64,000 bases of DNA, from assembly GCA_017864995.1 (NCBI GenBank), contig GCA_017864995.1_4097.1. One strand, written 5' to 3'. Shown in pieces: positions 3,147 to 50,447 of this stretch. Made by a program: the position numbers and the translations under genes. This stretch comes from a phage. Position 1 is the stretch's first letter; each line of letters starts with the position of its first letter. Under the pieces are notes generated by a model. That model searched no databases and had not been told where the DNA came from. It worked only from the letters and a program-made list of their open reading frames with translations.

Positions 3147-3734
3147 ATGAGGATATACGAAATGGCTGGTGTTGATAAAATTTGTGAATTCAGTGGAGAT
3201 TATGAAGGTTACGAAATGTACAAGTCCAAGCGTAATCACATTCAAGTTCTGTCAAAGTACCGTAAAGAATTCCGAGGACACAAAGCAACATTGTATGTTT
3301 TTGAGAATGGATATTCTGAAGTTTTCACAAGTGGTGGGTATAGTACAGCTAACATGGCACATATCAACCCAAACCCAACTGAAGATGATTGGAATAGTGG
3401 TAACGCTTTTCGTATTTCAATTTTGAATAAAATGAATCGTTACGACCGTTATTGTACATTCTTTGAAAATATTTCAGAATACAAGCAAGCATTAAAGAAA
3501 TATAATCAACGCTTACTAATGAATTATGATTACATTCTTCATGTTCCTACTGTTCCAGGTCAGGTTAATGGTCTGTATACGAACAGTACACATGATTTAA
3601 CTGCGGTGAAGCGTCGCCTCAAACGTATGTTGGGTTGTGGTAATTTAACAATCAAGGTTATGCGTAATGAATCAATGTATAACTTTTTAAATGTACTACA
3701 CTACACATTGAAGGATAATAATGGAAACGATTAA
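3147..3734 (+). CDS. hypothetical protein
   Basis: 195 aa ORF; start may be ATG 3162 which has a better GAGG SD. Confidence 0.65.
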   Translation: MRIYEMAGVDKICEFSGDYEGYEMYKSKRNHIQVLSKYRKEFRGHKATLYVFENGYSEVFTSGGYSTANMAHINPNPTEDDWNSGNAFRISILNKMNRYDRYCTFFENISEYKQALKKYNQRLLMNYDYILHVPTVPGQVNGLYTNSTHDLTAVKRRLKRMLGCGNLTIKVMRNESMYNFLNVLHYTLKDNNGND

Positions 3735-3918
3735 GTTTATGTTTGAGGTGTTTGTTGCATTCATCTTATGTGCTGTATCTATTGCTATTGCTTTAATCCC
3801 AGTAATCGTTTACCAAGTTAATGGTGGTACAGACCAAACAGTTGATCTGTTTCTTCGTTGCGTGGGATTCTGCATATGGTTGGCGATGTTTATGTACTAT
3901 ATGCATCGTGAGGATTGA
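3721..3918 (+). CDS. small membrane protein
   Basis: Hydrophobic 65 aa ORF with two predicted TM segments; overlaps neighbours by a few nt. Confidence 0.55.
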   Translation: METIKFMFEVFVAFILCAVSIAIALIPVIVYQVNGGTDQTVDLFLRCVGFCIWLAMFMYYMHRED

Positions 3919-4751
3919 TTATGTCATTGGAAAAAGTAATTATTTCTGAATTCCGAAAGTACATCATTGATTGTGATAGAGATACCCAGCGTAAGTTCAA
4001 TGAGTATCTTGACAAATATCCATATTTGATGTTTAATCCATTTGAAACTCAATCCGATGTTAATCTTGGATTTTACATTGGGTTTACACAACGAATTCTA
4101 CAACAATATGAGATGAAACAGCCAGAGGTTTGGGTAGAAACTGATTCGAATGAGACGAATGTTTTTTATCTGTACTCTTATTATGCTGAAATTGTTAGTT
4201 CAATGACGCTAGAAGGGTATCTATTCGTCAAAACATCTGATATTGAAAAAATATACATAGAACCTGTATCTTTGGATATGGTTGCCCAGCTTCCAACAGT
4301 TCAATATTTGGATGCAAATGAGTTGACATATTCGGTGTTTGAGTACCTTAACCGAGACGATTTAACTCAAGAAATTGAGAATATGGTTTCAAAATATACC
4401 ACAACTCTTATATCTAATGGTTCACTTAGAATAGAACTGATTTACGACGATACTAGTACTAATGCAGTACGAGGAATTCGAATTGGAAAAGTTACTATAC
4501 GTGTTGTCCACAATGATGTAGTACTTGGTTATATTTCGAAACGTGGTCATGACTTGTGTTTGATTAACACATATGTTATTGAACGAAAAGAATGGAACGA
4601 TTTAATGCAAAAAATCGTAGACGGAAGTGGAATTCGTGATATAATGTGTAATGAGGTAGTGACAATGAATCCTGACATTGACTGTGATGTATATTTCCCA
4701 GTTCCTGGATTTACTCTACGTAATTTTGGTACATTAAAGGGTACAAAATGA
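3915..4751 (+). CDS. hypothetical protein
   Basis: 278 aa ORF; ATGA overlaps at both ends. Confidence 0.7.
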   Translation: MIMSLEKVIISEFRKYIIDCDRDTQRKFNEYLDKYPYLMFNPFETQSDVNLGFYIGFTQRILQQYEMKQPEVWVETDSNETNVFYLYSYYAEIVSSMTLEGYLFVKTSDIEKIYIEPVSLDMVAQLPTVQYLDANELTYSVFEYLNRDDLTQEIENMVSKYTTTLISNGSLRIELIYDDTSTNAVRGIRIGKVTIRVVHNDVVLGYISKRGHDLCLINTYVIERKEWNDLMQKIVDGSGIRDIMCNEVVTMNPDIDCDVYFPVPGFTLRNFGTLKGTK

Positions 4752-5988: not shown

Positions 5989-6495
5989 ATGAGTGTTGAA
6001 TATTGGTTTTTGTTTATATGTCTTGGTACACTAGTACTGATTACATTGGGCTTAATCTTCAATACGGTAATCAGTGGTAGTAATTACTTCAAGTCCTTTC
6101 AACTTCTAATGTCAGCTATGCAGTACAGTGACGAGGCAGAAGAAACCACTACGTTGATTTTGAATAAACTTGAAGCTAACTTACTGGTTGCTAAAATTTC
6201 TTCGTGTAATACAAATATTGTATTTTATGCATCACCCGTGGACATTAATGGGTACGAAATGAGTTACCAACCAGCCGTTGCTGAAATTTTTATTGGTTCT
6301 AAGTATTATGCATATGGATATATCCGAAAGTATTATACTGAAGCAAAAGCCGAGCTAACAAAGAAACGACCGTCAATTAAGACATTAAAGCGTATCATCG
6401 CACTAGAAAAGAAACTACGAGGTGATGTGACAAAAAATGATTCACCCACTGTAGTAAATACAAAGAAAAAAAATAACGTAGTGGAGTTGGATTAA
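5989..6495 (+). CDS. membrane-anchored hypothetical protein
   Basis: 168 aa ORF with N-terminal hydrophobic segment (FLFICLGTLVLITLGLIF). Confidence 0.65.
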   Translation: MSVEYWFLFICLGTLVLITLGLIFNTVISGSNYFKSFQLLMSAMQYSDEAEETTTLILNKLEANLLVAKISSCNTNIVFYASPVDINGYEMSYQPAVAEIFIGSKYYAYGYIRKYYTEAKAELTKKRPSIKTLKRIIALEKKLRGDVTKNDSPTVVNTKKKNNVVELD

Positions 6496-6800
6496 TGGAC
6501 GCAGATAAATCAAACAGTATTCTTATTGATGTACAAACGAAGTTATTAGATGTTATGGAAATCATCAAAGATTTACCACAAGGATATCAGTTTAAAGTTC
6601 GTGAAATGTTATCTTGTGCAGAAACGGTTGTGTCTATGTACAATGATGTGCAGCATGGAATTATCCCTGAAATTCTTCAAGATGGTCTAAATATTAACAC
6701 AAAGATTCCAGCACAAGAGCCTGAAGAGGTTGTTCAGCCTGAACCAGAACCTCCTATACGTAAAGTACTGGATCTATCTGGGATTAAAATTAACATCTAA
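6495..6800 (+). CDS. hypothetical protein
   Basis: 101 aa ORF, acidic PEPEP-rich C-terminus; TAATG overlap. Confidence 0.6.
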   Translation: MDADKSNSILIDVQTKLLDVMEIIKDLPQGYQFKVREMLSCAETVVSMYNDVQHGIIPEILQDGLNINTKIPAQEPEEVVQPEPEPPIRKVLDLSGIKINI

Positions 6801-10014: not shown

Positions 10015-10141
<127 letters not shown>

Positions 10142-10148
10142 CCAAAAT

Positions 10149-10249
<101 letters not shown>

Positions 10250-10251
10250 CC

Positions 10252-10412
<161 letters not shown>

Positions 10413-10416
<4 letters not shown>

Positions 10417-10573
10417 CACATGAAGAATGGATGAATGACATTAATTTTAGATATTCGGGTATCGGTAAATGGCTAAAGTATCATTGGGAATTCATTTCAG
10501 AGCCACATCTGTATGATAAACTTATCAACGATCCAGCATATGAAATGTACTTAATTGAACTACTGGTACGAAC

Positions 10574-10577
<4 letters not shown>
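10413..10577 (+). CDS. hypothetical small protein, MTHEEW family (copy 2)
   Basis: 54 aa ORF; ATGA overlap with copy 1; tandem duplicate. Confidence 0.5.
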
Positions 10578-10745
<168 letters not shown>

Positions 10746-10746
10746 G

Positions 10747-11200
<454 letters not shown>

Positions 11201-11228
11201 GTATCTTAATAACAGAAGGTATATTGAA

Positions 11229-11468
11229 ATGAGTAAGTATTTTGTGAGTTATAGTTATAATGTATCACAAAAGGTTCCACGTGGTGATGGAATGGGCTGG
11301 TCATATGATACATATACTTTAAATGAGTCATGTATCATCGAATTGCAAGAAAAAGACCTTGACATTTTAAAAATCAAACAATATATTCTTGATGTTGAAT
11401 TGGCACATCGTACCGACAACTGTCCAGATGTAAACAACGTCAACATCTTAGTACTAACCAAAGTATAA
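11229..11468 (+). CDS. hypothetical protein
   Basis: Track ORF 11199 trimmed to ATG 11229 with GAAGG SD. Confidence 0.55.
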   Translation: MSKYFVSYSYNVSQKVPRGDGMGWSYDTYTLNESCIIELQEKDLDILKIKQYILDVELAHRTDNCPDVNNVNILVLTKV

Positions 11469-11474
11469 GATAAA

Positions 11475-11508
<34 letters not shown>

Positions 11509-11514
11509 GAATTC

Positions 11515-11860
11515 CACAATCAGACGTATATGGTGTAAGTTACGTCGATGTAATCCAGAACAAGATCTCTGGTACTCTAGGAAGTGGTGAATGTTAACCT
11601 AGACGGGTTTGATAATTGGACGATAGGCAATTATTACTTGACTAGCAGGTTTAAACTAGAGGTGACAGTCCTTTACCAAACTGGAAAACCGGATGGACTT
11701 TTATTTAAAAGGGTAAGGCGTGGAAATATGTTTACAGTAGTTGCTTTTAGTAGCCTGTACGCCCCACGTCAAGGTAGCCGAAAGGCAAGTTAAAACGGGT
11801 GGTTATAAAGCTGAATTAACAGCGGCGTTTAAAAGCGTCACCATCCATTTTTTTAATTAA
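11515..11860 (+). ncRNA. candidate structured non-coding RNA (function unknown)
   Basis: About 350 nt driven by promoter at 11480, visibly higher GC than flanks, no convincing ORF (only a GTG-start 69 aa ORF of odd composition), multiple stems; lies in the tRNA region. Confidence 0.3.
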
Positions 11861-11870
11861 AGTTGGTGAT

Positions 11871-12690
<820 letters not shown>

Positions 12691-12703
12691 ATAGGAAATT
12701 AAA

Positions 12704-12889
12704 GTGCAACTTTTAATTCTTTCAATATTGTATATTATTATAATGGTTCCGATATCAATACGTTTAATTACACTTGAACGATTTTTATCGAAACATGGAA
12801 ATAGATCTATGATCTTTGTACCAATCGGGTTGATATTGTTTGGTATATTTTCATTTATAATGGGAATTAACGCTACATTCATTTCATAG
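12704..12889 (+). CDS. small hydrophobic membrane protein
   Basis: 61 aa ORF with GTG start; two hydrophobic segments. Confidence 0.4.
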   Translation: MQLLILSILYIIIMVPISIRLITLERFLSKHGNRSMIFVPIGLILFGIFSFIMGINATFIS

Positions 12890-12898
12890 GAAACAAAT

Positions 12899-13566
<668 letters not shown>

Positions 13567-13585
13567 AGAGGTACTTCGAGTATGC

Positions 13586-13916
<331 letters not shown>

Positions 13917-13967
13917 GCCTCCCCTCAATGCGAAAGAGTATGGAGACTTGTTGGTTATCTTACTTCT

Positions 13968-14050
<83 letters not shown>

Positions 14051-14053
14051 TCA

Positions 14054-14126
<73 letters not shown>

Positions 14127-14143
14127 CAAAATAAAGGTACACT

Positions 14144-41145: not shown

Positions 41146-41152
41146 AAGAAAA

Positions 41153-41185
41153 GGGTTGACTTCGGTCGGCCCTTTTTGCTATAAT
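41153..41185 (+). promoter_or_regulatory. terminator-promoter cassette (PeSL-like)
   Basis: gggttgac-TTCG-gtcggccc, TTTTT, TATAAT at 41180, conserved leader catttcatcaactactggagg. Confidence 0.7.
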
Positions 41186-41211
41186 CATTTCATCAACTAC
41201 TGGAGGCAAAC

Positions 41212-44453: not shown

Positions 44454-44705
44454 ATGAAAATTTTATTAGTTCTAATACTACTAATTGTTTTACCATTTAC
44501 GTTAGTATCCCCTGAACTTGCATGGAATGTGTTTGTGTACTTACTATGTACTATTGTAGTAAATGGTATCTTGATCTTAGTTCTATTCATAAATGGAATA
44601 GGACACGGTGGAGGATGGACCAGTACTGCTGATATTGTACATAAAACCACTATGTTTTTATTTGTAGTGTGGAATTTATTCTGGACTTGGTTTGTGTTCT
44701 TCTAA
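44454..44705 (+). CDS. small polytopic membrane protein
   Basis: 83 aa, 3 hydrophobic segments. Confidence 0.5.
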   Translation: MKILLVLILLIVLPFTLVSPELAWNVFVYLLCTIVVNGILILVLFINGIGHGGGWTSTADIVHKTTMFLFVVWNLFWTWFVFF

Positions 44706-44714
44706 TTAAAAAAT

Positions 44715-45086
44715 ATGAATATAGATTTGAAAGGTGCAACACGAACTGTCATACTCATTGGGGAATATGCTATCAAGATTCCAACCTTTAAAAGTTGGAA
44801 GCTATTCTTAACAGGGATGATAGCTAACCTCAATGAACGTTCGTGGATGCAGTACTCCAAGCGTAGTGATACTGGTATCTGTCCTACTTTGTGGTCATCA
44901 TGTACTGGACTAGTAACTGTACAGAAACGTTGTAAGCCAGTACAACATAGGGGTTTATTTTGGGTGGAGTTGTGTGCTTTAGCATTGAATTCAGAGTTAA
45001 GTACTGACTTCTTTTATTCAGATGCGAAGCCAGAAAACTTTGGGTATCTGTGTGGTAAGTTGGTTAAACTTGATTATGGAGATTAA
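44715..45086 (+). CDS. hypothetical protein
   Basis: 123 aa ORF. Confidence 0.6.
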   Translation: MNIDLKGATRTVILIGEYAIKIPTFKSWKLFLTGMIANLNERSWMQYSKRSDTGICPTLWSSCTGLVTVQKRCKPVQHRGLFWVELCALALNSELSTDFFYSDAKPENFGYLCGKLVKLDYGD

Positions 45087-45087
45087 T

Positions 45088-45357
45088 ATGTACGCACTGT
45101 ATAATAAAGAAAAGAAACGATTTGCTAAGGTTGAAATTTCGATTGATACATTTGACATGTTGGAGTACTGTATTGTAACGGACCTATATGCTAACTTGTA
45201 TTACGTTCTTGATGACGTATCAGTACTGCAACGATTGCTTGAGAATTCCAAAAGTCAATGCCAGGGCATCCATGATGGTTCATCTTATGAAACACCTGAG
45301 TGTTCCTACGGCTATCTGGACGGGTATGAGATTGTGAAGTTGGGGATTGTTGAATAA
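45088..45357 (+). CDS. hypothetical protein
   Basis: Track ORF 45022 trimmed to ATG 45088 (SD GGAG) after upstream stop. Confidence 0.5.
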   Translation: MYALYNKEKKRFAKVEISIDTFDMLEYCIVTDLYANLYYVLDDVSVLQRLLENSKSQCQGIHDGSSYETPECSYGYLDGYEIVKLGIVE

Positions 45358-45369
45358 ATGGATTAAACA

Positions 45370-45783
45370 ATGAAGAAGTGTATCACGTGTAATATTGAAA
45401 AAGACATTAGTGAATTTGGTATAAGAAGTGATACTGGGAAACATAGAAATACATGCAAAGGTTGTAGTAATATTACCAGTAAGAGAACCAGAAATAAAAA
45501 AACTGATGTAAAAACACTTGAAGAAATCAAAAGAAAAAATAAAGATTTCATGACCAGAGTTAAATCATTTTATGGTTGTAGTGTTTGTATGATGAAGTAT
45601 CCAGAATGTTTAGACTTTCACCATCTTGACCCTAATACCAAAGAACATACACCAAGTTCTATGTTCAGTAAAAGTCGAGATGCTATCAAAGATGAAATTC
45701 GAAAGTGTATGATTCTTTGTTCTAATCACCATCGCATGGTACATTCTGGTAGACTATGTTTGATTGAAAGAAAAAAGGGTTGA
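45370..45783 (+). CDS. HNH endonuclease (freestanding, homing-endonuclease-like)
   Basis: CITC...CKGC...LDFHHLDPNTKEH...CMILCSNHHRMVH fits HNH with zinc-binding cysteines; stop codon TGA lies inside the TTGACT of the downstream cassette. Confidence 0.65.
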   Translation: MKKCITCNIEKDISEFGIRSDTGKHRNTCKGCSNITSKRTRNKKTDVKTLEEIKRKNKDFMTRVKSFYGCSVCMMKYPECLDFHHLDPNTKEHTPSSMFSKSRDAIKDEIRKCMILCSNHHRMVHSGRLCLIERKKG

Positions 45784-45809
45784 CTTCGGTCAGCCCTTTT
45801 TGCTATAAT
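45777..45809 (+). promoter_or_regulatory. terminator-promoter cassette (PeSL-like)
   Basis: gggttgac-TTCG-gtcagccc, TTTTT, TATAAT at 45804, leader catttcatcgaaacgagagg. Confidence 0.7.
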
Positions 45810-45837
45810 CATTTCATCGAAACGAGAGGATGAATAC

Positions 45838-46281
45838 ATGACACGCATTAACTTAGTACACGTTAAAGAACTTGCTGACCAACATCTGATGGCTGAATAT
45901 CGTGAACTCCCACGTGTGTTTGGTGCTGTACAAAAACATGTTCAAGCACGTAAGCGAGTCCGTGATTTCAAAATTAACAGTACTTACCTGTTAGGTTCAG
46001 GTCATGTAACATTCTTCTACAACAAGTTATTGTACTTACAGAAGCGTCATATTGATATTGTTAACGAATGTTTGCGTCGTGGGATGAAGATTCAAAACAC
46101 TGAAGTAAACGACATTAGCGGATTCCCTACTGAGTTTTGTAATGACTACGTACCATCGGAGTCAGAGATTAAAATGTCTCGTGAGCGTTTGATTGAGAAG
46201 CTACAGATGAAGCCTACGTGGTATAAGTTTACTGATGTTGAGTTACCTGAGTATTATCGTTCTATGATAGTGTATTACTAA
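45838..46281 (+). CDS. denV: pyrimidine dimer DNA glycosylase / endonuclease V
   Basis: N-terminus [35 protein letters not shown]...VRDFKI...GHVTFFY...PTWYK matches my memory of T4 endonuclease V nearly residue for residue over the first ~60 aa. Confidence 0.85.
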
Positions 46282-46321
46282 AAATACACCATAAATGAAG
46301 AAATTATTTAATACAAATGTG

Positions 46322-46350
46322 TTGACCAGTGGTTGACATTTATGTTAACA
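46322..46350 (+). promoter_or_regulatory. possible promoter (TTGACC-17-TAACAT)
   Basis: gttgaccagtggttgacatttatgttaacat upstream of 46382; weak. Confidence 0.3.
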
Positions 46351-46381
46351 TATCAGTACTGAAAACTAAAGAGATTGAGTA

Positions 46382-47836
46382 ATGTTTGAAGAATTTTACA
46401 TGAACTTAAAAAATGAAAAAGTATTCATACATAGTGAATGTGGGATGTCATTTCAATTCATTGATAATAGTATTCTTCCAGATTACTATAAGAATGTGAT
46501 CAATAAATTGAGAACCATAAATTCAAACATTACGATTTTTGGATTCTGTGTAAGCTCATTAGATGAGCTATCATCTAAATCAAAAATTCTTTTCATGTAT
46601 AAGAATGTTTTATATTTAAATATGGATCAACATACCTTAAAAAATAAAATTTCCAAAACAACAGATTTGAAATTTGTAGTTCCATATAATAATGATAACT
46701 ATTTTTATTACATTACCCAAAAAGTGAAAAAATTTGGGGCATGTATTTTTGAAAATGAAAAAATAAGTGATGGTGCAAATACTATAATTAAATACAAATG
46801 TCACGACGGTCATATAACCAACAAAACTATAAAGGCGATTCACAATAATCCAGATAAATGTATGATGTGTGCTGGCATAGCCCCACTAACCCAAGAAAAT
46901 GCATCATCTATCGTTGCGGAGAAATGTAAAGAAAAAAATCTTGAATTTACTCCATTTACATATATCAATATTTCTACCAAAATAAATCTATATTGTAAGA
47001 TTCATGATTATTCTTGGGTATCAGTGTATAATAACATCAGGAATGATGGGTTTGGGTGTAAGTATTGTGCAAGTGCAAAAAATTCAATGCTACGCAAACC
47101 AAAAAACCCACAACAAGAAATTGAAAAAATATGTGTTGAGAATGGGTATAAATTAGTGGAGCCTTTTGTATATACCAATCAAACCACAGTCATTCATTTA
47201 ATGTGTGATAAACATCCAATACCCCACACATGGAAGACTGCTTATTCATCTTTGGTATATTCAAAGACTAAGTGTAACTTATGTCAAACACATAAATCAT
47301 CTAGGGCGAATATCATTAATAAAGAAGAACGTAAAGCTCAAGTTCAAGCAAAAAGTTTAAAAAATGACTGGGTATTGAAAGATTTTGAATTTGGGGGAAG
47401 TGTTTGTAGAAATATACATCTTGAATGTCATAAGCATAGTCGAGTACATAAGTGGACAACAACCTATCATCATTACATTGTTCGTGATCAAGGTTGTGCA
47501 GCCTGTAATAATGGTCATACACAGCAATATGCTTATATTAATACTATTTTAGACAATGATTTACCTGTGGCTTTAAAATATGGTATTGAAAAACAAAAAG
47601 GAACAAGAGTTAAGACACAAAATAGAAAATCATTATTTAAAGTACAGTCATTGTATGTTTATGTATTCCAAAGCGTAGAACAGTGCAAGAACGCTGAAAA
47701 AGAATGTAAGAAGATTTTTGGAAAAGGTATTTTATCTAAACGCGAAATGTGTGATGGATATACTGAAACAACCACAATATTAAATTTGGGTAAAATCATT
47801 GAAATCTATGAAAAATGGGGTGGCGTAAAACAATAA
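46382..47836 (+). CDS. Cys/His-rich repeat protein (four C-x-H ... G-C-x2-C modules; putative zinc-binding DNA-binding or nuclease-like)
   Basis: Repeats YKCHDGH...CMMCAG, LYCKIHDY...GCKYCAS, LMCDKHP...CNLCQ, LECHKHS...GCAACNN spaced about 55 aa apart. Confidence 0.7.
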   Translation: MFEEFYMNLKNEKVFIHSECGMSFQFIDNSILPDYYKNVINKLRTINSNITIFGFCVSSLDELSSKSKILFMYKNVLYLNMDQHTLKNKISKTTDLKFVVPYNNDNYFYYITQKVKKFGACIFENEKISDGANTIIKYKCHDGHITNKTIKAIHNNPDKCMMCAGIAPLTQENASSIVAEKCKEKNLEFTPFTYINISTKINLYCKIHDYSWVSVYNNIRNDGFGCKYCASAKNSMLRKPKNPQQEIEKICVENGYKLVEPFVYTNQTTVIHLMCDKHPIPHTWKTAYSSLVYSKTKCNLCQTHKSSRANIINKEERKAQVQAKSLKNDWVLKDFEFGGSVCRNIHLECHKHSRVHKWTTTYHHYIVRDQGCAACNNGHTQQYAYINTILDNDLPVALKYGIEKQKGTRVKTQNRKSLFKVQSLYVYVFQSVEQCKNAEKECKKIFGKGILSKREMCDGYTETTTILNLGKIIEIYEKWGGVKQ

Positions 47837-47844
47837 TAAGAAAA

Positions 47845-47877
47845 GGGTTGACTTCGGTCGGCCCTTTTTGCTATAAT
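47845..47877 (+). promoter_or_regulatory. terminator-promoter cassette (PeSL-like)
   Basis: gggttgac-TTCG-gtcggccc, TTTTT, TATAAT at 47872, leader tatttcatcaactgatgagg; near-identical to 41153 and 45777. Confidence 0.7.
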
Positions 47878-47905
47878 TATTTCATCAACTGATGAGGATA
47901 ACGAA

Positions 47906-48676
47906 ATGACCAGAGAAGCACGTAGCATTCAAATTCAGAAAAACTTCAACTCCATGATGGTTGCTCTTGAGTGTTTGCTCGACGATAGCAGTACTGTAAA
48001 AAGTATGGTTGTCAGCGGTGCACCTGGTGTTGGTAAGACTTACACCCTGTCACAACGCCTCCAGAAAGCTCATGACGCAGCAGAATGGAACGTAGCTACT
48101 ATCAGTGGTAAGATGACTACTCTTGCTCTGTATGAAGTTCTGTACAAGAATCGTCACAGCACCAACGTATTAGTACTGGATGATATGGACAGCATCTTTG
48201 ATTCAGAAGACGGTATGAACCTACTCAAAGCAGTACTGGACAGCGGTAAACGTACTGTGTCTTACATGACTAGCTCTAAGTACTTAACTACCAACGGTAT
48301 CCCTAACAGCTTTGATTTTAACGGTCGTATCGTGTTCATTACTAACAAAGATTTAGCACTGAATGCTAAAGCTAAAACCAAAATGTCTGCTCACTATGCT
48401 GCTCTTATGTCTCGCTCTGTGTATGTTGACTTACAGATCCAGACTAAAAGCGATATCATGATTCACATTGAAAACGTAATGAACAAGACCAACATCCTGT
48501 CAACTAAAGGTGTTAATAGTAATGGTAGCAAAGCAATCCTGAATTGGATGCTGAAACATGAAGATGCACTTCGTGCTCCTTCACTGCGTATGCCTCTGTT
48601 GATTTCAGCAGTATACAACAACAACCCGTATGATTGGGAAGAGCAGTGCGAAAACTTGTTCCTTGAGAAAATTTAA
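47906..48676 (+). CDS. P-loop NTPase (AAA-like ATPase)
   Basis: Walker A VVSGAPGVGKTYTL and Walker B-like NVLVLDDMDSIF. Confidence 0.7.
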   Translation: MTREARSIQIQKNFNSMMVALECLLDDSSTVKSMVVSGAPGVGKTYTLSQRLQKAHDAAEWNVATISGKMTTLALYEVLYKNRHSTNVLVLDDMDSIFDSEDGMNLLKAVLDSGKRTVSYMTSSKYLTTNGIPNSFDFNGRIVFITNKDLALNAKAKTKMSAHYAALMSRSVYVDLQIQTKSDIMIHIENVMNKTNILSTKGVNSNGSKAILNWMLKHEDALRAPSLRMPLLISAVYNNNPYDWEEQCENLFLEKI

Positions 48677-48743
48677 TTACATGTATTGACTGTACTATCA
48701 TAGTGTAGTACTATAACTTAATATTCACCACCGGAGATACGAT

Positions 48744-49082
48744 ATGCTTGAGTTTTTTAATTCAGATACAATGCTTAGTATTACTTTGATTTATCTGTTT
48801 GGTTTTTTCTTTTATCATGCACTAGTTGTAGTACTATGGTATTTTAAAAAGAAAATCGTTTTCAAACTGTATCCTGATGGAAACATTTCACTACTTCTTT
48901 TCACTATTATCCAAGGTATGTTTGCAATTGTTGGTCTTATCGCACACTTAATTTATTGTGCTAATCCACAGTTGAACTCAATATCACAATATATTGTATT
49001 CCTTGGATTACTAATTTGGGTGCTGATATACTTGTTTAATCTCATCATTAATGGTAGAGCAAAAATTCGTGGGGACTTCTAA
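48744..49082 (+). CDS. small polytopic membrane protein, basic-C-tail family (copy B1)
   Basis: 112 aa, 3 hydrophobic segments. Confidence 0.6.
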   Translation: MLEFFNSDTMLSITLIYLFGFFFYHALVVVLWYFKKKIVFKLYPDGNISLLLFTIIQGMFAIVGLIAHLIYCANPQLNSISQYIVFLGLLIWVLIYLFNLIINGRAKIRGDF

Positions 49083-49429
49083 TGTTTGAATCTTATCTTG
49101 AGTTGTTAAAGAGTAGTTCTGTTGCACATTCAATTGCAGGGATTATTCTAACAGGTTATGTAACATTTTGGGTAGTTATGTTTCTAGGATGGTATTTTAA
49201 ACGACAATTCTATAAGCGTAATGGTGAAGATTTTATGAATTCTTTCATTAATCAATCGTTGTTTGCATCAACATTGATAGCATGTATTGTAGCAACACTC
49301 ACAGGAAAGGTACTGCCAGCATTCTCCGCAGTTTACGGTACATTGGGTATGATATGTGTAGTTTTTTACTTGACCATTAAACTTTGTTGTGTTATGATTG
49401 AACTTCGAAACAAGATACCGGAGGAATGA
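49082..49429 (+). CDS. small polytopic membrane protein, basic-C-tail family (copy B2)
   Basis: C-terminus ELRNKIPEE resembles copies A1-A3; TAATG overlap. Confidence 0.6.
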   Translation: MFESYLELLKSSSVAHSIAGIILTGYVTFWVVMFLGWYFKRQFYKRNGEDFMNSFINQSLFASTLIACIVATLTGKVLPAFSAVYGTLGMICVVFYLTIKLCCVMIELRNKIPEE

Positions 49430-49764
49430 TGGAATATTTTTTACACTTAATGCCGTGGTATATGAAAGTTAGTACTATGTACTATATTCTTAGTGCTGGA
49501 TTCTACTTTCTGATGTGGTTCTTCAAACGACCAATTTCAGTATTCATCTCTGATAACATGCTGCAATTAAAATTACACGCATGGTTTGGTATGGCGATGT
49601 TCATGCCTATTATTCACTACTCAATGATTAGTAGAGGGTTCCGTTCCAATGGTGAACCAATTATATTAGTATTCTATTGGGGTTCAACTATTGCATATGT
49701 AAGTTTGTTGTTGTTCCCAGTCGTTCATAAATTACGTGCTAAAGTTCCTGATGCGAGGTACTAA
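49426..49764 (+). CDS. small polytopic membrane protein, basic-C-tail family (copy B3)
   Basis: C-terminus HKLRAKVPDARY; ATGA overlap. Confidence 0.6.
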   Translation: MMEYFLHLMPWYMKVSTMYYILSAGFYFLMWFFKRPISVFISDNMLQLKLHAWFGMAMFMPIIHYSMISRGFRSNGEPIILVFYWGSTIAYVSLLLFPVVHKLRAKVPDARY

Positions 49765-50078
49765 TGGATATCGTAACATTGATTTACACGCTTTATTCAT
49801 TCTATTTTATTATGTGTTGGGTTGGATTTTTATTTGTACTGAAGATGTTTGATTATGTTGAAAAACAGATAAAAGAATTTTGTATTCCTTTTATTGGGTC
49901 AACCATTATTAGTATTACTTGCTTGTATTATTTGATATGTGATCCACCTGTTAATACAGCAATGATTGACTTCATGTTATTACCAACAACTGTTATTTTT
50001 TTATGTAGTCTGATGCCACCGATTAGCCGTGGACTAACTGAATTTAGACGCAATCAAAAGCGTAAACGAGGGATGTGA
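49764..50078 (+). CDS. small polytopic membrane protein, basic-C-tail family (copy B4)
   Basis: C-terminus TEFRRNQKRKRGM. Confidence 0.6.
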   Translation: MDIVTLIYTLYSFYFIMCWVGFLFVLKMFDYVEKQIKEFCIPFIGSTIISITCLYYLICDPPVNTAMIDFMLLPTTVIFLCSLMPPISRGLTEFRRNQKRKRGM

Positions 50079-50446
50079 TGGAAATTGCACTTATTATATT
50101 AACTTCTATGTTGTTTATTAGTACAATTGTTATTATTGGCAAGTTCTTCTGTGTATCCTTCTTGGAAACCGTATACGATGAAATTGCTGATGATTATGAA
50201 TTACATGCGGGATTTTTTACTACGTATTGGATTAGTTTATTACTACTTATCACTGTATGGATTTTACATATATTCAAATGGGGTATGGTAGATGGTGATC
50301 CAGTACTGGCAATTATCTGTGTAGTGTTTGGTCTACTCGGTGGTGCTGTCCATAATCTGATGGTAATTTGGCAAACCGTACAATATGTATTAGTTCCACA
50401 TTTTCAGAGAATGCACCAAAGCATCAAATACCGCAAACGAGGATAA
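50075..50446 (+). CDS. small polytopic membrane protein, basic-C-tail family (copy B5)
   Basis: C-terminus QSIKYRKRG; ATGA overlap. Confidence 0.6.
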   Translation: MMEIALIILTSMLFISTIVIIGKFFCVSFLETVYDEIADDYELHAGFFTTYWISLLLLITVWILHIFKWGMVDGDPVLAIICVVFGLLGGAVHNLMVIWQTVQYVLVPHFQRMHQSIKYRKRG

Positions 50447-50447
50447 C

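Follow-up and report, generated by a model that had tools for sequence, protein, structure and literature searches.

A probable homing-endonuclease-gene hotspot around denV among the early genes of an Asteriusvirus-like jumbo coliphage

Barth, Dunham and Seed (2023; PMC10448857) described T5orf172-type homing endonucleases with repeated CapR/DUF723/DUF4379 modules, together with domain shuffling and clusters of homing-endonuclease genes of mixed classes. One such protein is TcgB, encoded by a T5orf172 gene beside terL in Vibrio phage ICP1, and most genes of this kind have been found next to essential genes (PMC10448857). The NrdC.10 protein of phage T4 is a conserved AAA ATPase (PMC1524935). 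Here we describe a locus that holds relatives of both proteins.

The window, by which we mean the whole 64,000-nucleotide stretch of DNA that was analysed, derives from an Asteriusvirus-like E. coli "jumbo" phage with a genome of ~350 kb, 98% identical to fEgEco12 and EC.P1; the nearest records are 350-380-kb Asteriusvirus-like jumbo phages, and the T4-type genome assumed in a preliminary description of this DNA is not what was found. Four open reading frames, all on the + strand and at the positions given in that description, make up the locus: an HNH endonuclease gene (45370-45783), denV (45838-46281), a gene for a protein with Cys/His repeats (46382-47836) and an ATPase gene (47906-48676). 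We favor, with a probability of about three in four, the reading that this is a homing-endonuclease-gene hotspot in the early-gene region, and it is likely that denV and the NrdC.10-type AAA+ ATPase form a fixed resident frame to which the HNH and Cys/His nuclease genes are optional additions. The order denV then ATPase is kept in 9 of the 10 relatives examined, that of TH47 being deduced from ORF sizes and DNA matches, while the locus as a whole takes at least nine different layouts among relatives, most of them with other nucleases. Nuclease genes are by far the commonest variable cargo; PBECO4, SHEFM2K, E9.1 and UB carry unrelated-looking phrog_681/559/9084 nucleases, and TH47 has a 507-aa homologue of the Cys/His protein on the opposite side of denV. 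All four combinations of presence and absence of the HNH and Cys/His genes are found, each varying independently among relatives, and these two genes have low GC contents (0.31 and 0.29, respectively), those of the resident genes being 0.385 and 0.415. The earlier view that all four genes are independently acquired modules thus holds for the HNH and Cys/His genes, which are present or absent among relatives, and fails for denV and the ATPase, with their conserved order and T4 homologues.

The assignment of denV, a pyrimidine-dimer DNA glycosylase of 147 aa homologous to T4 endonuclease V, is secure as first proposed, with matches to Pfam Pyr_excise (6e-15; PF03013, 55.8 bits with the cut-off at 23), phrog_1183 (7e-59) and PDB 2END (3.9e-54 over residues 1-131). 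The protein begins MTRINL and contains Thr2, Arg3, Arg22, Glu23 and Arg26, so that the catalytic Thr2 and Glu23 are in place as in the T4 enzyme (PDB 2END, 1VAS). It differs from the latter in its C-terminal tail, of which two alleles (147 and 171 aa) occur in this phage group. The short 3' allele present here is common to PBECO4 and SHEFM2K up to base 46268; the 171-aa allele is found in fEgEco12, EC.P1, UB and E9.1, and the denV ORFs of ELP-22 and TH47 have the same 171-aa length. The second conserved resident gene encodes a 256-aa protein with an AAA+ fold of base and lid that belongs, like T4 NrdC.10, to PHROG 1250, a family present in 1310 phage records; identity to NrdC.10 is 38% over 239 residues (7e-56). 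The P-loop noted previously is present as GAPGVGKT at residues 38-45 (Walker A, G38-T45), together with Walker B D92-D93, sensor-1 N147 and conserved R170, R223 and R228, and matches to AAA-type Pfam profiles fall under threshold. The protein lacks the ~70 N-terminal residues of NrdC.10 and its gene neighborhood is different. Of the two placements that would have refuted the earlier description, one is seen: the ATPase belongs to a conserved, syntenic family. The Cys/His protein is not a housekeeping protein.

The first of the optional genes encodes a 137-aa HNH protein, as originally annotated, with a match to phrog_2255 (4.6e-32) and to five further HNH PHROGs; the Pfam HNH_2 score of 13.5 bits is under threshold. 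An N-terminal CxxC...CxxC zinc ribbon is followed by a C-terminal HNH core, DFHHLD...CSNHHRMVH, the motif and its flanking Cys pairs comprising C70-x2-C73, H84-H85, C113-x3-C117, N119, H120-H121 and H125. The gene (GC 0.314) starts 12 nt past the upstream stop codon. It is cleanly absent (bases 45359-45762) from PBECO4, SD-15_S21 and contig L015 and has an internal deletion (45384-45702) in SHEFM2K, E9.1 and ELP-22, with a left insertion edge at 45358, directly after the stop codon, and a right edge at 45763. Relatives of the protein with at least 80% identity occur in only 17 phage records and the next best match has 42%. From this distribution the gene is probably mobile. At 137 aa the protein is short for a homing enzyme, which counts against a homing reading of the HNH gene.

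The 484-aa Cys/His-repeat protein was initially thought to belong to no family that could be named. It matches the phrog_681 'endonuclease' family with 1e-52 and is homologous to ICP1 TcgB (27% identity, 3e-23, along residues 139-483), and on sequence grounds is probably a T5orf172-type homing endonuclease with repeated CapR/DUF723/DUF4379-like zinc modules. Three regions can be distinguished, beginning with a very AT-rich N-terminal domain (residues 1-135, bases 46382-46786; GC 0.261 across bases 46382-46880) with AF2 pLDDT values below 50. A search of 1.84 billion representative proteins returned only four matches to this domain, namely the query, P0133, P0134 and a further match that is doubtful, and its motif, MFE.(Y/F)Y.N....EKV(Y/F).H.E.GM.F, is common to a handful of other homing-endonuclease-like proteins. 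The domain is also found in a 382-aa ORF of TH47 and in PBECO4 gp306, in the same slot and joined to different nuclease domains.

The zinc-module array follows (46790-47521). Residues 137-165 make up a partial module, and residues 169-236, 240-308 and 312-380 are three full modules of ~68 aa, CapR-like, each combining a helix and beta strands with ligands of the pattern Cys-His...Cys-x2-Cys; pLDDT values are mostly ~70-89. The ligands are C140/H141...C160-x2-C163, C205/H208...C226-x2-C229, C275/H278...C299-x2-C302 and C348/H351...C372-x2-C375, so that all four of the modules described earlier have the Cys/His...Cys-x2-Cys pattern, the Gly said to precede the second Cys pair being present in just two. 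These putative zinc ligands align across the four modules and the CapR modules of TcgB and of the protein P0010. Only one of the four modules exceeds the Pfam CapR (PF21817) threshold, module 1 (169-236) scanned alone giving 28.0 bits (E 2.5e-6) where the cut-off is 24.2; module 2 alone gives 14.9 bits, modules 0 and 3 scanned singly give no CapR match and the whole protein gives 22.1 bits, under the cut-off. No DNA-level repeats were found between the modules. The array is presumed to be a sequence-specific DNA-binding region, with ~35% identity between the DNA-binding part of the protein and its nearest phage homologue.

Residues 381-484 (47522-47836, including the stop codon) form a T5orf172-type nuclease domain with the GIY-YIG fold. 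Y385, Y400-G401, R409, E439/E441, E462 and N468 are conserved in an alignment of 12 homologues, with R409 and N468 invariant; R409 and E462 are candidate catalytic residues, and the protein is a predicted nuclease. No match to Pfam T5orf172 (PF10544) or MUG113 (PF13455) was obtained with the whole protein at E<=0.1 or the isolated C-terminal domain at E<=5, and among its homologues only P0007 matches these profiles, weakly (0.01). We consider this a limit of detection that does not show non-homology. The domain is 42% identical over 105 residues to TcgB residues 290-394 (5e-27), and this region of TcgB overlaps the latter's own T5orf172 match at 295-387, which with 21.3 bits exceeds the cut-off of 20; TcgB has a Pfam CapR match as well. 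As the Cys/His protein would be a divergent member of a nuclease class already described, the locus is instructive but ordinary.

The two nearest relatives, fEgEco12 and EC.P1, lack the Cys/His gene, and blastn breakpoints together with alignment of the denV 3' end delimit an inserted or replaced segment, 46242-47837 (+), that stands where these phages have 111 bp, in which the long denV allele has its final 37 codons. The breakpoints are sharp, at 46241 and 47838, where homology to fEgEco12 resumes; relative to the short denV allele of the PBECO4 type it falls at 46268/46269. A DNA search of 50,697 phage records found nothing that matches bases 46269-47511, even in 'distant' mode. The nuclease domain and downstream cassette show 78-88% DNA identity with other nucleases at the locus; one breakpoint is intragenic, at the boundary between zinc modules and nuclease domain (47512). 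The gene is a mosaic, and shared nuclease-domain DNA next to a DNA-binding part lacking DNA relatives points to recombinational exchange at the domain boundary. An identical Cys/His protein is encoded on 8 contigs from several samples, and in each of the four places examined its gene follows the 147-aa denV.

We infer from the pattern of presence and absence, the degraded copies and the hotspot behavior that the Cys/His gene homes. In a co-infection with a relative lacking the gene, the zinc modules would bind a long asymmetric site in or near the empty denV-ATPase junction, the GIY-YIG-type domain would cut close to the bound site, and recombinational repair templated by the carrier genome would transfer the gene, along with adjacent markers, to the genome that was cut. 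Since the insertion removes the 111-bp denV tail of the empty allele, the carrier genome would be protected if the target lies there. There is no clear co-conversion signal in SNP density near the junction, a cleavage site or target for the protein could not be read from the sequence, and the non-essential nature of denV counts against homing. Could the protein instead derive from a homing endonuclease that was domesticated and now serves the phage, as a site-specific nuclease directed against a satellite, plasmid or competing phage, or as a DNA-binding regulator? There are precedents in the same domain family (PMC10448857), the nuclease Odn of ICP1 and the regulator CapR of the PLE satellite, the unique DNA-binding part could recognize a foreign target, and the identical protein is intact in all 8 contigs. 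We nevertheless regard domestication as unlikely. The nuclease domain retains its conserved residues, so that the protein would not be a pure repressor; Pfam scans of it for a RepA_N-like or other borrowed target-recognition domain found none; and, as one would expect of a selfish element, its slot is occupied by other nucleases in relatives and the gene is missing from the nearest of them.

Two of the gene junctions carry cassettes that combine a predicted terminator with a predicted promoter. The cassette core, GGGTTGACTTCGGTCRGCCCTTTTTGCTATAAT, occurs in 3 copies at <=3 mismatches, versus 0 expected, and a profile search (nhmmer) adds two copies that are complete but weaker and three that consist of the hairpin alone. 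Copy 1 (45772-45833, +), an exact pattern match with an nhmmer E-value of 4.4e-22, has a 13-bp hairpin at 45772-45801, A5GGGTTGAC-TTCG-GTCAGCCCT5, whose 5' arm contains the -35 box TTGACT (45780-45785), and an extended -10 box TGcTATAAT that ends at 45809, followed by a Shine-Dalgarno sequence and the denV ATG. Its RNA fold has -19.8 kcal/mol (z -4.9), its promoter matches at 11 of 12 positions with TG, and the TGA stop of the HNH gene (45781-45783) lies inside the -35 box. Copy 2 (47840-47901, +; 4.1e-22), at the right edge of the inserted block, is the predicted promoter of the ATPase gene, with a hairpin at 47840-47869, a -35 box at 47848-47853, a -10 box ending at 47877 and a fold of -18.3 kcal/mol (z -5.4). 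A further copy in the window, likewise resembling a promoter-early stem-loop (PeSL) cassette, is at 41148-41208. The four genes had been described as each bracketed by such cassettes; this is correct for the HNH/denV and Cys/His/ATPase junctions and incorrect for the other three of the five. No cassette is present upstream of the HNH gene, the denV/Cys-His spacer (46282-46381, +) gives no nhmmer match and is not a cassette copy, and this spacer and that between the ATPase and the next gene (48677-48743) contain just weak promoter-like matches (9 of 12 positions) and fold no better or barely better than shuffled sequences (z -1.9 and +0.7, respectively). In the former, a weak hairpin (46319-46339) overlaps the promoter-like TTGACC-18-TAACAT (46322-46351). 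In functional terms 'PeSL-like' reasonably describes the two real cassettes, if not every junction. By their sequence, the cassettes would have both promoter and terminator activity, and we think it likely that they are compact transcription insulators, in which the 5' arm of a terminator hairpin includes the -35 box belonging to the consensus sigma-70 promoter that follows. As both nuclease genes are directly upstream of a cassette, the predicted promoter of the downstream resident gene would be left undisturbed.

The cassettes also suggest that presence and absence might arise from ordinary homologous recombination between them, a PeSL-style shuffling of the kind ascribed to PeSLs in RB49 and phi1 (PMC2839356), with nuclease genes as passive cargo. 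The core of ~45 nt is invariant and repeated at module boundaries in the window, PBECO4, UB, TH47 and SHEFM2K, that of copy 1 being unchanged in copies from PBECO4, UB and TH47, and the right breakpoints of both insertions, 45763 and 47838, are within a few bases of a cassette, so that plain recombination between cassettes could explain part of the pattern without a nuclease. As a full account this is quite improbable, however, because the left breakpoints are away from cassettes, at 45358, directly behind a stop codon, and inside the denV tail (46241 or 46268), because the breakpoint at 47512 is intragenic, and because the variable cargo is so much more often a nuclease gene than any other. 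Homing and recombination between cassettes can act together. That the four adjacent same-strand genes, all with DNA-related motifs, form a functional DNA-repair or DNA-transaction operon in which the zinc-finger protein and ATPase partner denV is highly improbable, as the Cys/His and HNH genes are missing from close relatives that retain denV and the ATPase, each resident gene has its own predicted promoter with a terminator ahead of it, homologues of the Cys/His protein occur at unrelated loci such as that beside terL in ICP1, and no denV is found in the 46-59 kb stretch examined around T4 nrdC.10 (54.3-55.3 kb).

The closest parallel is the TcgB/gp130 type of ICP1 (PMC10448857), which shares with the Cys/His protein repeated ~65-aa zinc modules on the N-terminal side and a ~100-aa C-terminal nuclease, as well as a free-standing gene, a slot used by other nuclease classes and evidence of domain swapping at module boundaries. 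Unlike that type, the nuclease domain here escapes the Pfam T5orf172 profile, there is an extra ~130-aa N-terminal domain with almost no relatives, and the gene flanks a non-essential repair gene, not terminase, RNR or capsid genes. The host is an Asteriusvirus-like jumbo coliphage, a group that does not appear among the lineages given as enriched in the sections of that survey considered here. The Seg GIY-YIG and Mob HNH genes of T4 (PMC2988022) are likewise optional intergenic nuclease genes between conserved genes, varying among close relatives, and spread by cutting the gene-less allele followed by recombinational repair, which by analogy we assume here too; the DNA-binding part of the present protein differs in its repeated CHCC zinc modules, and the phage is of another lineage. 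Finally, the cassettes resemble the PeSLs known from T4-like phages such as RB49 and phi1 (PMC2839356, PMC4122927) in joining a sigma-70 promoter of consensus sequence to a stable stem-loop that would act as a terminator, and in recurring between genes, at module boundaries of variable early regions. The resemblance is one of design only, in another phage lineage and apparently with no sequence relationship; cassettes occupy only two of the five junctions of the cluster, and the hairpin, which in PeSLs is mostly between the -35 and -10 boxes or over the -10 box, here overlaps the -35 box.

The four open reading frames at 45370-48676, all on the plus strand, lie exactly where the preliminary description had placed them: an HNH endonuclease gene (45370-45783), denV (45838-46281), a gene for a 484-residue Cys/His-repeat protein (46382-47836) and a P-loop ATPase gene (47906-48676). 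A megablast search with this region matches 65 phage records, led by Escherichia phages EC.P1 and fEgEco12 (98.6% and 98.2% identity, respectively) and followed by Asteriusvirus members UB, PBECO4, 121Q and TH47 at 88-97%; the matched Asteriusvirus-like genomes are all 320-385 kb in size. With Asteriusvirus-like jumbo phages supplying the best records, the T4-type genome assumed initially is not the appropriate frame, and we treat the DNA as that of a jumbo Asteriusvirus-like phage. Query coverage is at most 52% for every record, a first sign of an insertion within the region, and both fEgEco12 and EC.P1 serve as natural 'empty' partners at 98% identity. Eight public contigs, among them a metagenome scaffold of 357,535 bp, encode the exact Cys/His protein, and at all four of the places examined its gene is preceded by a 147-residue version of denV. 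The presence of the same arrangement on several public contigs establishes that it is real and not an artefact of assembly.

The order denV then ATPase is kept in fEgEco12, EC.P1, UB, TH47 (an unannotated record for which gene order was deduced from ORF sizes and DNA matches), PBECO4, SHEFM2K, E9.1, ELP-22 and SD-15_S21, and in the stretch of WPEC5 that was fetched the ATPase gene is present and denV was not seen. The interval between these two genes, which we refer to as the slot, is empty in fEgEco12 and EC.P1. Around denV lie four ORFs in UB, including one for a 487-residue protein (Pfam CapR, phrog_681), gp308, gp307, a 379-residue phrog_681 nuclease (gp306) and gp305 in PBECO4, a 474-residue phrog_9084/559 nuclease in SHEFM2K and ELP-22, nucleases of 449 and 193 residues in E9.1, nuclease fragments in WPEC5 and a denV-gp308 fusion in SD-15_S21. 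TH47 has a 382-residue nuclease in the slot and, on the opposite flank of denV, a 507-residue homologue of the window's Cys/His protein. The whole interval from the upstream ORF to the ATPase gene is arranged differently in nearly all of the relatives examined, and this hotspot, with at least nine layouts, in which the HNH gene is intact, internally deleted or absent altogether, is a clear example of gene turnover.

Assignment of the first gene as an HNH endonuclease is borne out by a match to phrog_2255 (4.6e-32) and by the Cys pairs and H..N..H core in its sequence, with the Pfam HNH_2 match falling below threshold. The gene starts 12 nt from the upstream ORF, and bases 45359-45762 are cleanly missing from PBECO4, SD-15_S21 and contig L015; SHEFM2K, E9.1 and ELP-22 carry an internal deletion of 45384-45702, and in UB only a 64-residue fragment is annotated. 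The occurrence together of intact, degraded and empty states is the expectation for a gene that passes through the homing-endonuclease life cycle. All four combinations of the HNH and Cys/His genes are found (Cys/His only in L015, HNH only in fEgEco12, both in the window and neither in PBECO4), so that the two vary independently, and their GC contents are 0.314 and 0.294 vs 0.385 for denV and 0.415 for the ATPase gene. The earlier proposal of independently acquired modules is therefore retained for the HNH and Cys/His genes and abandoned for denV and the ATPase, the order of which is conserved in relatives. A short imperfect direct repeat flanks the HNH insertion, TTGAATAAA on the left (45341-45360) and TTGAAAGAAAA on the right (45760-45776), which may reflect microhomology at insertion or chance, and the C-terminal codons and stop of the HNH ORF come from the A-run and 5' arm of the hairpin in the adjoining cassette, a predicted terminator hairpin containing the -35 box of the next predicted promoter.

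The identification of denV is secure from Pfam Pyr_excise (6e-15) and from PDB 2END (3.9e-54, residues 1-131), with the residues at catalytic positions, Thr2 and Glu23, in place in the alignment with T4 endonuclease V. Relative to fEgEco12 and EC.P1, homology ends at 46241 and restarts at 47838, such that 1596 bp stand in place of 111 bp corresponding to the last 37 codons of a 171-residue denV. We had considered that the insertion truncated denV, a view that must be softened since sequence shared with PBECO4 and SHEFM2K extends to 46268; the 147-residue form is then a 'short' allele that existed already and was altered over its last few codons, and it retains everything that aligns to the 138-residue T4 enzyme. 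In the Salmonella phage SD-15_S21 (locus L010, 1579-2358) an in-frame fusion of denV with the next gene downstream, of phrog_32140 (PBECO4 gp308 family), makes up a 259-residue ORF annotated 'endonuclease'; the fusion could be natural, or the stop codon of the short allele could have been missed through a sequencing error.

The Cys/His protein, which the preliminary description could not name, can now be placed among the phage homing endonucleases, in the T5orf172/CapR class, and all four of the Cys-His...Cys-x2-Cys units reported for it are present. It matches phrog_681 'endonuclease' at 1e-52, while a Pfam search with the whole protein gives a CapR match below threshold and nothing else. Searched as isolated modules, module 1 (169-236) scores 28.0 bits against CapR vs a cut-off of 24.2, module 2 gives a weak match and neither module 0 nor module 3 is detected, and all four align at ligand positions with the CapR modules of the ICP1 protein TcgB and of the protein P0010. 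TcgB (gp130), annotated as a putative homing endonuclease beside terL, carries both Pfam CapR and T5orf172 domains and is 27% identical overall (3e-23); the last 105 residues of our protein align with TcgB 290-394 at 42% identity (5e-27), overlapping the T5orf172 match of TcgB at 295-387. The Pfam T5orf172 profile itself does not match the Cys/His protein, in the nuclease domain of which Tyr385, Tyr400-Gly401, Arg409, Glu439/441, Glu462 and Asn468 are conserved. Relatives were found by tblastn in 311 phage records (RaK2, GAP32, CBB, KP13-7, Vibrio ICP1 and others), and over most of the length no relative exceeds ∼38% identity. PDB sequence searches with the protein and with the family profile gave no match, and a search for homologues that used just the C-terminal domain returned a single protein, the word index being too coarse for a 106-residue query. 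In the account by Barth, Dunham and Seed (PMC10448857) T5orf172 is described as a subfamily of GIY-YIG that is coupled to zinc modules (CapR, DUF723 or DUF4379) in repeated copies; the genes often adjoin those of different nuclease classes and display shuffling of domains, and nuclease activity has been demonstrated for the relative Odn. Judged by its sequence, the Cys/His protein belongs to this class, described in 2023, as a divergent new member; the presence of the class in this group of phages had not been pointed out in the literature that we searched. The cluster holds nothing that is categorically new.

The DNA-binding and catalytic halves of the Cys/His gene have different histories. 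From 47512 (residue 377-378), a point that coincides exactly with the end of the zinc modules and the start of the nuclease domain, the DNA resembles that of other nuclease genes and the match runs on into the cassette and the ATPase gene, with 88% identity to the 3' end of the gene for the 193-residue E9.1 nuclease and 79% to a WPEC5 remnant, and from 47693 it is 78.5% identical to the gene for the 507-residue TH47 protein. For the 1243 bp at 46269-47511 a search of the phage collection gave no DNA match, even with the sensitivity of blastn. A recent internal duplication of the four modules can be dismissed, as there are no DNA repeats and protein identities are just 20-27%. Among 1.84 billion representative proteins there are almost no relatives of the first 135 residues, which contain the motif MFE.(Y/F)Y.N....EKV(Y/F).H.E.GM.F, with which about five proteins are known. 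It recurs at the start of P0133 and P0134 (phrog_9084-type nucleases), the 382-residue TH47 ORF and PBECO4 gp306, and the opening can also be written as MFE.YY.NEDGEKVYFHEE.GM.FEWM. The N-terminal domain, ∼130 residues in length, is encoded at 46382-46786 in the window, at 6169-6600 of locus L004 and at 3700-4125 (minus strand) of locus L005, and is found in P0133 and P0134. The nuclease heads of the carriers are of three kinds, two T5orf172-type variants and one phrog_9084-type, the heads of the other carriers differing from that of the window protein, and the motif carriers in this slot, each in a different Asteriusvirus, are the window gene, the 382-residue TH47 ORF and PBECO4 gp306. The domain might be a targeting module of a kind not described before and peculiar to homing endonucleases, a constant address that would tie the element to one locus during swaps of nuclease heads and zinc modules, with the hairpin-in-promoter cassettes as recombination joints; we put this forward as a speculation that we think rather unlikely to be correct.

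We infer the steps of homing from the biology of the GIY-YIG and HNH homing endonucleases of T4 and ICP1 (PMC2988022; PMC10448857). The zinc array would bind an extended site in a co-infecting relative, at its empty junction or close to it; the nuclease would then cut near the bound site, and repair would copy the nuclease gene into the cut genome. Both nuclease genes lie directly upstream of a cassette, so that the downstream gene keeps its promoter untouched. Rfam searches over 44500-49500 gave only two chance-level matches and no group I intron, and the nuclease genes are therefore free-standing. SNP density relative to fEgEco12 and EC.P1, computed on both flanks to look for co-conversion tracts, rises slightly in the last 200 nt of denV but has similar peaks elsewhere, and so gives no clear trace of co-conversion. 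The cassettes and the nuclease domain, being shared, also offer homologous stretches to ordinary recombination, which probably contributes to the pattern and is a rival to the homing explanation. A domesticated role for the Cys/His protein, of the Odn or CapR type, is unlikely. PADLOC defence models returned no match, so that nothing points to a system of defence or anti-defence.

The last gene of the cluster, with its GAPGVGKT and hhhhDD Walker B motifs, encodes a P-loop ATPase as described. It matches phrog_1250 (7e-103) and is 38% identical to T4 NrdC.10 (7e-56), with ∼70 N-terminal residues missing; an assignment to NrdC.11 was discarded because gene order in HY01 and T4 together with BLASTP gives NrdC.10. 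The only statement on NrdC.10 that we found in the literature is that it matches an AAA motif (PMC1524935). NCBIfam has nothing for the other three cluster proteins and weak Hda and Orc1/Cdc6 matches for the ATPase, which, with the DD Walker B, lean slightly towards the initiator clade as a tentative placement. By tblastn the family is present in 1310 phage records, mostly T4-like, so that more than 1300 phage genomes carry an AAA+ ATPase of this type. In T4 itself (NC_000866, 54343-57208; locus L014) nrdC.10 is one gene from mobD, a free-standing HNH homing endonuclease gene inserted beside nrdC.11, and in some T4-like records the ATPase match overlaps features annotated as homing endonuclease or putative endonuclease; the family may often have homing-endonuclease neighbours. 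Downstream, at 48744-51183, are seven head-to-tail small ORFs of 104-123 residues, most with 1-3 long hydrophobic stretches, apparently an array coding for small membrane proteins; they show almost no mutual similarity, the first matches phrog_19454 and the first several recur after the ATPase gene in most relatives fetched. A perfect 12-bp hairpin at 51190-51216, terminator-like on both strands and near a change of sign in GC skew, is probably the border of two divergently oriented transcription blocks, and in relatives a minus-strand gene for an RCC1-like 'chromosome condensation regulator' comes next (from ∼52000).

Cassettes had been described around each gene and are found at two junctions, HNH/denV (45772-45833) and Cys/His/ATPase (47840-47901); the remaining two spacers have just 9/12 promoter-like matches and a non-significant fold. 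The sequence GGGTTGACTTCGGTCRGCCCTTTTTGCTATAAT is present three times vs 0 expected, and a profile from eight copies locates two weaker full copies (34514 and 38106) and three hairpin-only copies. Cassette RNA forms a 13-bp hairpin, A5GGGUUGAC-UUCG-GUCRGCCCU5, of -18 to -20 kcal/mol (z ∼-5, none of 200 shuffles folding as well), which is of intrinsic-terminator shape. The -35 hexamer TTGACT lies within the 5' arm, followed 18 nt on by TGcTATAAT and then by a Shine-Dalgarno sequence and ATG. Transcripts arriving from upstream would contain the hairpin and those from the cassette's own promoter would not, and the cassette is consequently read as a putative terminator-then-promoter insulator. A core of ∼45 nt is invariant between the window copies and those of PBECO4, UB and TH47. 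All TTGAC-N17-20-TANAAT sites in the window (29/29) are on the plus strand, and the whole stretch has the appearance of an early region in which promoters recur at intervals of a few small genes. There is also a second repeated promoter type, distinct from the hairpin cassette, with a conserved spacer close to CAGTACTG (TTGACTAAATAGTTCAGTACTGTATAATG in the tRNA-cluster copies), at 10748, 11169, 11480, 12239, 28429, 32740 and 43608; it is interleaved with the tRNA cluster, six genes (Ser, Ser, Met, Asn, Thr, Thr) at 10055-14127. The hairpin cassettes resemble the PeSLs (promoter-early stem-loops) of the T4-like phages RB49 and phi1, in which a consensus promoter and a terminator stem-loop likewise border variable genes (PMC2839356; PMC4122927), but they differ from PeSLs in belonging to another phage lineage and in the position of the hairpin.
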